Made by a program: the position numbers and the translations under genes. From Escherichia phage vB_EcoS-611R4, in sequence record ON470587: DNA of 20,345 bases; one strand, written 5' to 3'. This document shows positions 14,850-17,513 of this stretch, in pieces; positions within the stretch are counted from its first letter, which is position 1, and each line of letters begins with the position of its first letter. The notes below the pieces were generated by a model. It did no database searches. It had not been told where the DNA came from and worked only from the letters and a program-made list of their open reading frames with translations.

Positions 14850-17348
14850 ATGGCAGAGCAAACCTCGCGTCTCGCAATAATTATTGATAGCACTGGAGCA
14901 AAAAATAATGCTGACAATCTGACCTCCTCATTAGTCAAAATGACGCAGGCCGGGGAAACTGCTGCAAATAGCGCAGGGAAAGTGACTAAGGCAACAGAAG
15001 ATGAGAAGAACGCGCTCGCAAAATTAAAAGTAGCTATTGATCCAGTTGGTGCCGCAATTGATACTGTCGGTCGACGCTATTCTGAATTAAAGAAATTTTT
15101 CGATAAAGGGCTTATTGATAAAGAAGAATATGAATTTCTTGTCCGTAAACTTAATGAAACCACAGAGGAATTGAGCGGGGTTGCGCAAGCGCAGAGAGAA
15201 GCCGAGAAGGCCGGAAAACTTGCTGCCGCCCAGCAGGAAGCGCAGGCTCAGGCCTTTCAAAGAATGCTGGACAAGATCGACCCTCTGGCTGCGGCGCTAA
15301 GAAATCTTGAACAACAGCAGGATGAACTTAATGCTGCGTTTGCATCCGGGAAAATAAATGGTTCTCAGTTTGAGAATTATAGCCGAAAAATACAGGAAAC
15401 ACGGCGAGAGCTTACCGGAGAGGCTCAGGCAGAGCGAGAAGCAGCAAAAGCGCATGATGAACAGGTTGCTGCTTTGCAACGTCTGATTGCTCAACTTGAC
15501 CCTGTCGGAACTGCTTTTAATCGTCTGGTAGAACAACAGAAACAGCTCAATGAAGCAAAAGCTAAGGGGATGCTCTCTCCTGAAATGTATGAGGAACTTT
15601 CTGGAAAACTTCGTGCTATGCGGAGTGAGCTTGAGGTTACTCAATCTCAATTAAGCAAAACCGGAATGTCGGCAAAACAAACGGCTTTTGCTATGCGCAT
15701 GTTGCCTGCACAAATGACGGATATTGTTGTTGGGTTGTCCACTGGTCAGTCGCCTTTTATGGTGTTAATGCAGCAGGGCGGCCAGCTAAAAGATATGTTC
15801 GGTGGGATTGGCCCGGCGATCAAAGGTGTTGGTTCTTATGTGCTGGGATTAATTAATCCTTTTACCCTGGCCGCAGCAGCCGTTGGCGTCTTAGGGCTGG
15901 CTTACTATAAAGGCTCTCAGGAGCAGGACGAATTTAATAAATCTCTTATTCTTACCGGAAATCAGTTGGGGACAACCAGCGGGCAATTGGCCGATATAGC
16001 TCAACGTGCCGGGAATGCGGCTGATTCGACAACTGGCGCTGCGGCGGCAGTATTAAACCAGCTTGTGCGTTCGGGAAAGGTAGCGAGCAGTTCGCTGGAG
16101 CAAGTGACGACAGCGATAGTAAAAACGAGCGAAGTAACAGGAATATCAACCGAACAACTGGTTAATGACTTCAATGAAATTGCAAAGGATCCTGTCAGTG
16201 CCATATCAAAACTTAATGATCAGTACCATTTTCTGACAATTGCGACTTATAACCAGATTAAGGCGCTACAGGATGAAGGGAACCAGCAGGAGGCCGCCCG
16301 CATTGCGACAGAAGCATACTCATCCTCAATGATCCAGCGCACCAACCAGATTAAAGAAAATCTTGGTTATCTTGAGACTGCATGGAAAGCTGTCGCAGAC
16401 TCCGCAAAATGGGCATGGGATTCCATGCTGGACATTGGCCGTGAGGCCTCCCTTGATCAAAAAATCTCAGATGTTCTCCGTCAAATTGATGAAATAGAAA
16501 AAAATACCCGACCCGGAGTTTTCGGGTTAGGTGGCATTGGAGATGGCGGAGCTCAAAATAAAAGGCTGGCACGATTAAAGCAGCAATTGGGCGTACTTCA
16601 AGCAGAAAAAATTGCTCAGGACGTCCTAAATTCATCAATAAACGATTACAACAAGCGACAACAGGAAGGAATTGAACTCAGACAGAGAGCAGATGCCTTT
16701 TCAAAACAATATCAGACCCGGGAGCAGCAGAGAGCTAGTGAACTTGCAAAACTGGAAAAGCTAAAGAGTCAGTATTCAAAGGAAGAATATAATAATTTTA
16801 TCGCTCAAATAAATGAGCGTTATAAAGATCCAAAGCAACCAAAGGCGAAAGGTTATTCGGATGATGCTGCCCAACGAATGATTGATCATCTGAATCAACA
16901 GAATGCGTTACTAAGTTCACAAACTGAATTAACCGTTAAATTAAGTTCCTCTGAACAGGAACTGGTTAAGTGGCGTCAGCAGATTGCCGACCTGGAGTCA
17001 CGACCGTCATCGAAATTAACCCAGGATCAGAAATCGCTTCTCTTACACCGGGAAGAAATAACCGCGTTGATGGAGAAAAATGTTGCGATTGAAAAAAATA
17101 ACAGGCTAATCAAGGAATCCGCCGAAATAGCTGCATGGCGTGATTTATTGCAGGCTTCGATTGATAATCGTCAACAGGGGTATGATATTCAGATTGCTGG
17201 TTATGGGGTTGGCGATAAAAATCAGCAACGCCAGCAGGAATTACTGCGGATTGAACGTGAATATAACAATCAGCGTCTGCAACTTGAACGTGACTATGCA
17301 GATAAATCCCGTGGGATGTCAAATCATGTTTTTCAGGAGAAAATGTAG
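14850..17348 (+). CDS. tail tape measure protein, N-terminal portion (ends at an in-frame amber codon)
   Basis: ORF 14850..17348 (832 aa); GGAG RBS 10 nt upstream. N-terminus has three ~75-aa coiled-coil repeats. The segment [44 protein letters not shown] matches my recollection of lambda gpH ([40 protein letters not shown]). Terminates at TAG 17346..17348, but the same frame continues open to 18083. Confidence 0.85.
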
Positions 17349-17513
17349 GCTCTGAATGATGCTCTGGAACGAGAAAAAGAAATTGTCAGACAGAAAAACG
17401 AGCAGCTCGATATTCAGGCAGGAGACTGGGTTAGTGGTGCCTCCCAGGGATTCAATAACTGGCTGGATGACACTAAGGATATCAGTGAGCAGATAAAATC
17501 AACCACGACTCAG

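Follow-up and report, generated by a model that had tools for sequence, protein, structure and literature searches.

The window analysed here is a stretch of 20,345 nt recorded as Escherichia phage vB_EcoS-611R4 (ON470587). The 'phages' of its source study are PHASTER-predicted prophages that were scored 'intact' and never isolated; they come from Illumina/SPAdes drafts of UK carbapenemase-producing E. coli of ST38, ST131, ST167, ST405 and ST410, and the study tested mixed lysates only (bioRxiv 10.1101/2022.06.29.498070). The features in and around the tape measure gene are collected in Table 1. Upstream of that gene, the 3′ end of the ydaY/gpG-like open reading frame reads AT A AAA AAG CCA TAG, with a slippery heptamer (A_AAA_AAG, 14366-14372) 4 nt ahead of the stop codon; past this site the −1 frame is open to 14686 and has a weak Pfam match to Phage_TAC_18 on 14453-14683. 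From these signals 13917-14686 appears to be a canonical G/GT-type programmed −1 frameshift region of tail assembly chaperones. In the databases the two reading frames stand as small genes with no link to each other, one under the K-12 name 'uncharacterized protein YdaY'.

Table 1. Features in and around the tape measure gene, in window coordinates.
Feature	Coordinates	Strand	Basis or remark
Tail assembly chaperone pair, gpG/gpGT-like (ydaY plus −1 frame extension)	13917..14686	+	Directly upstream of the tape measure gene
N-terminal 832 codons of the tape measure gene	14850..17345	+	ORF; Pfam TMP_2 and TMP_4; YnaA match
Amber codon TAG, by alignment from CAG (Gln833) through a C>T transition at 17346	17346..17348	+	Alignments with vB_EcoS-473R12 and strain 144
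C-terminal remainder, 244 codons plus natural stop, expected to be untranslated	17349..18083	+	Pfam PF09718; contiguity in strain 144
Second GenBank CDS, 'tail length tape-measure protein H'	17514..18083	+	ORF-calling artefact
gpM-like minor tail protein gene	18076..18414	+	Phage_min_tail, E=1e-31; overlaps the natural tape measure end
gpL gene	18414-19112		Phage_tail_L, E=4.5e-98; followed by K, I and J

The tape measure reading frame starts with ATG and in the ORF list it ends after 832 amino acids at the TAG (ORF 14850..17348), where the local letters are CAG GAG AAA ATG TAG GCT CTG. Read in one frame, 14850-18083 comprises 1078 codons with only one internal stop, codon 833, in addition to the terminal stop; 244 sense codons lie between the TAG and the natural stop, and the frame stays open to 18083. 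The chance that an unrelated frame would offer 245 more open codons is (61/64)^245, or about 7.8e-6. Before the stop, Pfam places TMP_2 (PF06791) at residues 267-471 (E=6.9e-82) and TMP_4 at residues 671-748, and after it Tape_meas_lam_C (PF09718) at residues 25-99 of the post-TAG part, in the same frame (E=2.4e-27). To span the stop in a tblastn comparison, the translation was used as query with Q set at codon 833, and query residues 270-928 aligned with lambda H at 28% identity. Since homology and domains continue across the TAG without a change of frame, the two halves are one gene: a single lambda-gpH-like tape measure gene of 1077 codons, broken by the TAG. The first-pass annotation of this DNA had described a tape measure gene split by this codon, with lambda gpH-like sequence on either side, and both points are borne out by the sequence, the ORF list and the one-frame translation, and by the Pfam domains and the tblastn alignment across the stop.

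The gene therefore has the TMP_2 core of the gpH family, the family's C-terminal domain in frame, and the family's position between a G/GT pair and M-L-K-I-J; what departs from the family is the reading frame, which is interrupted at codon 833. It belongs to the lambda gpH tape measure family as a pseudogene, and only its N-terminal part up to 17345 is expected to be translated efficiently. The second CDS in GenBank begins at the first ATG 3′ of the TAG in the ORF list. Upstream of the ATG at 17514 there is no Shine-Dalgarno-like sequence (caaccacgactcagATG), and this start falls within the Tape_meas_lam_C domain. A functional split gene with re-initiation at 17514 was ruled out on these two grounds, and the CDS is an artefact of ORF calling and no separate gene.

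To place the element, we looked at the complete genomes that contain the window DNA. There it belongs to a ~48-kb prophage adjoining ttcA, with the attachment site beyond the window itself, and the prophage carries intR, xisR, ralR, recT, recE, kilR, racR, ydaS/T/U/V, lysis genes, trkG, ynaK and ydaY. Integration next to ttcA is thus accompanied by intR/xisR and the Rac early genes, and the markers trkG, ynaK, ydaY and ynaA follow one another in K-12 order. The YnaA protein of K-12, which carries a tape measure domain annotation, matches residues 1-311 of the window protein at 99% identity. Because the Rac gene set adjoins ttcA and because of the YnaA identity, we take the window to be part of a full-length relative of the cryptic K-12 prophage Rac, integrated at ttcA. 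In the ST38 strain WP9-S17-ESBL-11, which has the TAG allele, all other Rac genes are annotated as intact, save a split side tail fibre gene and, at the right end, a remnant of a tail-fibre-assembly gene. Lambda can do without its side fibres, and the TAG is therefore the sole annotated lesion in this strain that hits a gene required for particle assembly in lambda.

Several other features of this prophage were noted along the way. In the window, trkG (a potassium transporter, host-type cargo; 600-2075) sits between the lysis and packaging genes as in K-12 Rac. Just upstream of the small terminase gene, at 2213-3929, ynaK encodes a ParB_N-domain protein of 263 aa, compared with a short remnant in K-12, and the ORF overlapping its end, annotated 'hypothetical protein', strongly matches the TAGT (TET-associated glycosyltransferase) family (PF20691, E=7.6e-35). 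There is no TET/JBP gene in the window. Judging by these domain matches, the ynaK/TAGT pair may serve full-length Rac as a module for DNA modification or anti-restriction. Two tRNA genes, tRNA-Thr and tRNA-Gly, precede the lysis genes in the full-length Rac of ST38. Outside the window, this prophage has iteA/iteS, annotated as an anti-phage ATPase and an S8 peptidase and located between its replication genes and its late-regulation genes (NZ_CP026723.1 133263-136656; L004 21264-24657).

Since the window comes from an Illumina/SPAdes draft with two N10 scaffold gaps, a sequencing or assembly error had been put forward for the TAG, in which case the true base would be C and the gene intact. An artefact should fail to reproduce across assemblies, but this T is found again and again. 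The exact TAG allele is present in 32 of 5426 complete E. coli genomes, 31 of which are 100% identical to the window over 1101 bp. The sources of these genomes include people, gulls, an egret, a dog and mussels as well as river water and sewage, and the sequencing was done in many laboratories and on many platforms. Among phage records, megablast gave nine matches: four draft-derived ones (vB_EcoS-606R9, -689R7, -683R6 and -885R8) match the 1,101-bp query around the stop at 99.9-100% identity and have the tape measure as two CDSs, and the other five, including vB_EcoS-473R12 and a Salmonella prophage, have it as a single CDS. In a collection of 15 billion proteins, the exact truncated products occur in 818 contigs, 525 with the 832-aa product of the window and 293 with its A61 variant. 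In both genomes inspected for this, 266917_2 and WP9-S17-ESBL-11, PGAP also labels the gene 'phage tail tape measure protein, pseudogene, internal stop'. What an error does look like can be seen in 266917_2, where a ydaU frameshift is private to that one assembly. We therefore give the error explanation practically no chance: the TAG is a genuine, inherited mutation.

The ydaU frameshift of 266917_2 was considered as a second shared lesion and ruled out for the same reason, as ydaU is intact in most of the other TAG genomes, with Nord1 and Nord58 having indels of their own. As for the two N gaps that had been pointed out as lying nearby, they do exist (19518-19527 and 19786-19795), but they are ~2.2 kb downstream of the TAG, in the K (C40 peptidase)/I tail-tip gene region, and have no bearing on it. 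They are scaffold gaps in place of 22 and 59 real bases, and with K and I both intact in complete genomes, damage to gene K was ruled out. The window is also the same as ON470581.1 over 1-19124 and differs from it within 19125-19785, probably because a conserved lambdoid gene that is repeated in the host genome was mis-assembled.

To identify the ancestral codon we turned to the closest relatives. Aligned with vB_EcoS-473R12, the region shows one difference in 101 bases, T in the window and C in the relative. The nearest CAG genome inspected was strain 144 (NZ_CP023364.1), which carries this prophage at the very same place in the chromosome, with proteins that mostly have identical RefSeq accessions, and in which the tape measure gene is intact (1077 aa, WP_016231723.1) with its N and C parts contiguous. 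Over window positions 6412-19785 (13.4 kb) there are only two differences from strain 144, at 15031 and 17346. This part of the gene is present in 705 of the 5426 complete genomes; the exact 79-bp CAG allele was found in 219 of those searched, and the ancestral 1077-aa protein in 835 contigs of the protein collection. The ancestral sense codon that the first-pass annotation had proposed to look for in related prophages is CAG (Gln), changed to TAG by a C-to-T transition.

Two other accounts of the codon were rejected. A programmed read-through or recoding site should be conserved, and with CAG in 219 and TAG in 32 complete genomes the stop is not kept in relatives, so programmed recoding was ruled out. 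A Dcm hot spot, where 5-methylcytosine in CCWGG is deaminated, was likewise ruled out as the cause of the transition, the sequence context being TGCAGGC. As a separate observation, EcPF14 (NZ_CP054230.1), of MLST 73, carries the CAG allele and is otherwise identical to the window over 1101 bp. MLST 73 belongs to phylogroup B2. Near-identical Rac structural modules thus occur in distant E. coli lineages, a hint of recent horizontal spread or recombination of the intact form.

The sequence type was looked up for six of the 32 TAG genomes, and all six are ST38: 266917_2 (O51:H30) and 28Eco12 (O102:H6) (PMC6963479), CP032145, CP040263 and CP040390 (PMC8116683), and NMBU_W05E18 (O86:H18) (PMC7311804). 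A seventh, OZ204848, merely has 'ST38' in its name. The genomes documented or named as ST38 come from the UK, Colombia, Turkey, Norway and the USA, and ST38 genomes differ among themselves by 2-4 SNPs in 19 kb. The most economical reading of this distribution would be one C>T transition in an ancestor of ST38 with vertical inheritance since. The first-pass annotation had listed a nonsense mutation in a defective prophage among its explanations, and the CAG of the relatives and the clonal inheritance of the TAG allele support it.

The second difference from strain 144, C>T at 15031, is also in the tape measure gene and is non-synonymous (A61V). It is present in the window and in WP9-S17-ESBL-11 and absent from the ST38 strain 266917_2, from strain 144 and from K-12 YnaA, and it therefore arose within ST38, after the amber mutation. 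An amino acid change in a gene that is already dead is compatible with relaxed constraint, though it is a single event. Based on the six typed genomes, the T at 17346 is a simple candidate marker for an ST38 lineage.

A genuine amber codon could still leave the gene functional if an amber suppressor tRNA of the host read it through, as had also been suggested. A Gln-inserting suppressor would give back exactly the ancestral protein, and supE alleles do exist, in 155 complete genomes. However, the 40 of these 155 that were listed are genomes of 4.5-4.8 Mb and mostly recognisable K-12 or laboratory derivatives. In the ST38 strain 266917_2 the gln tRNA operon was found by walking the chromosome, and ARAGORN gave the anticodon CTG for glnV and glnX and TTG for glnU and glnW; by these anticodons neither supE nor supB is present in this strain. 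A supF allele on the tyrT/tyrV backbone occurs in 0 of 5426 complete genomes, the tRNAs of the prophage are Thr(tgt) and Gly(tcc), and PGAP annotates no suppressor in the regions inspected. The check covered glnV/X/U/W, tyrT/V and the prophage tRNAs; at the loci covered there is no cognate amber suppressor tRNA in host or prophage, and the suggestion finds no support there. We consider it very unlikely that a host suppressor reads the gene through and keeps it functional.

Taken together, we regard it as highly probable that a CAG-to-TAG change in the tape measure gene of the ST38 Rac prophage, inherited clonally, truncates the product and should leave the prophage tailless. The data above show the mutation as real and give its ancestral state, its clonal distribution and the domains to either side; the tailless state is a prediction from them. 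The sequence of events we propose would begin with the C>T transition at Gln codon 833. It would have struck a full-length Rac-type lambdoid prophage, integrated at ttcA, of an E. coli strain ancestral to the pandemic clone ST38, and the allele would then have been passed on vertically to what is now its worldwide range in ST38. Translation has to stop after residue 832, keeping the N-terminal and central ruler regions, and the last 244 residues, including the lambda-type C-terminal domain, are missing save for rare read-through. In lambda, gpH is anchored by its C-terminal end in the tail-tip initiator complex, which is built from J, I, L and K, then H with G/GT, then M, and polymerisation of the tube runs along H. 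Without its C-terminal end the tape measure protein would be unable to nucleate tube polymerisation, and the prophage would produce DNA-filled heads with no or almost no tails. Tails should thus be absent because the truncated protein lacks the domain that docks at the tip. Polarity of the stop on M-L-K-I-J should be small under late-gene antitermination.

That the truncated product is non-functional had been claimed earlier on the ground that tape measure length sets tail length. The loss of function is still expected; the reason given for it does not hold, since it is the C-terminal 244 residues that matter. Katsura and Hendrix in 1984 reportedly obtained shorter, functional tails from in-frame internal deletions of lambda H, so being short would not by itself inactivate the protein.

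It is also conceivable that the stop is leaky or tolerated, with the prophage attenuated and not dead, or that it was selected to lock in place a useful prophage carrying trkG, recET and iteAS. Suppressor-free E. coli reads through UAG at a basal rate, mostly by inserting Gln, so slight leakiness is possible, with the wild-type protein made again in very small amounts. It is established that few tape measure molecules are needed per tail and that natural UAG read-through inserts Gln, and beyond the tape measure gene the 48-kb prophage of WP9-S17-ESBL-11 is essentially undamaged, bar the non-essential side tail fibre and the tfa remnant. Against this, the divergence of 2-4 SNPs per 19 kb, A61V being one of them, is too low for any continuing purifying selection to show, relatives do not conserve the stop, and the different lesions in strain 144 and K-12 fit neutral decay. 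On balance we think a leaky or selected stop improbable. The more specific picture of a throttled ST38 Rac, mostly locked in the chromosome and occasionally transmissible through read-through by tRNA-Gln, or with a stop favoured for stabilising the trkG/recET/iteAS cargo, we hold to be slightly more improbable again.

Our preferred reading, a truncated product and a tailless prophage, is a case of ordinary prophage decay. RefSeq already annotates the gene as a pseudogene with an internal stop, and it is nothing new in kind: point-mutated prophage genes are common, a long tape measure gene is a large target, and the event has little biological weight. Lesions elsewhere differ by lineage. Strain 144 has a terL that is 78 bp shorter and an IS5 that splits the side tail fibre gene (NZ_CP023364.1; L005 8474-9697 and 27879-31453), and K-12 Rac has large deletions and an IS5 in lomR. 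Such independent, differing lesions fit the pattern of neutral prophage decay, and ST38, strain 144 and K-12 together represent successive, independent stages of the decay of Rac. In practical terms, the GenBank records vB_EcoS-606R9, -689R7, -683R6 and -885R8 are 'intact' predictions with a broken essential tail gene given as two CDSs, and users of phage databases should avoid treating these vB_EcoS records as viable phages.

Compared with known systems, the closest is K-12 Rac with its ynaA/tmpR remnant, which is the same element at the same ttcA site with the same genes, and the tape measure gene is inactive in both. In K-12, deletions took away the packaging and head genes, most of the tail genes and the distal two thirds of the tape measure gene, whereas the ST38 prophage is nearly complete at ~48 kb and its gene is broken by one point mutation; the amber lesion is an early step on the path of decay along which K-12 has already lost most of this gene. 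With bacteriophage lambda gpH, the window protein shares the Pfam domains TMP_2 and Tape_meas_lam_C, and the two have in common the gene order of tube, G/GT chaperones with a −1 slippery site, H, M, L, K, I and J. Lambda gpH has 853 residues compared with 1077 for the ancestral window protein, for which a tail longer than lambda's is expected. The head genes of the window are unlike those of lambda, with a P22-type coat, a DUF4055 portal and a T4-type terminase fold, and unlike lambda gpH the window gene has an internal amber codon. In this last respect it resembles the classical lambda Ham (amber H) mutants, which likewise have an amber codon in the tape measure gene and in the laboratory make heads and no tails unless they are grown in a suppressor host. 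The Ham mutants are conditional-lethals of the laboratory, whereas the allele described here is natural and fixed in a wild clone without the tested suppressors.
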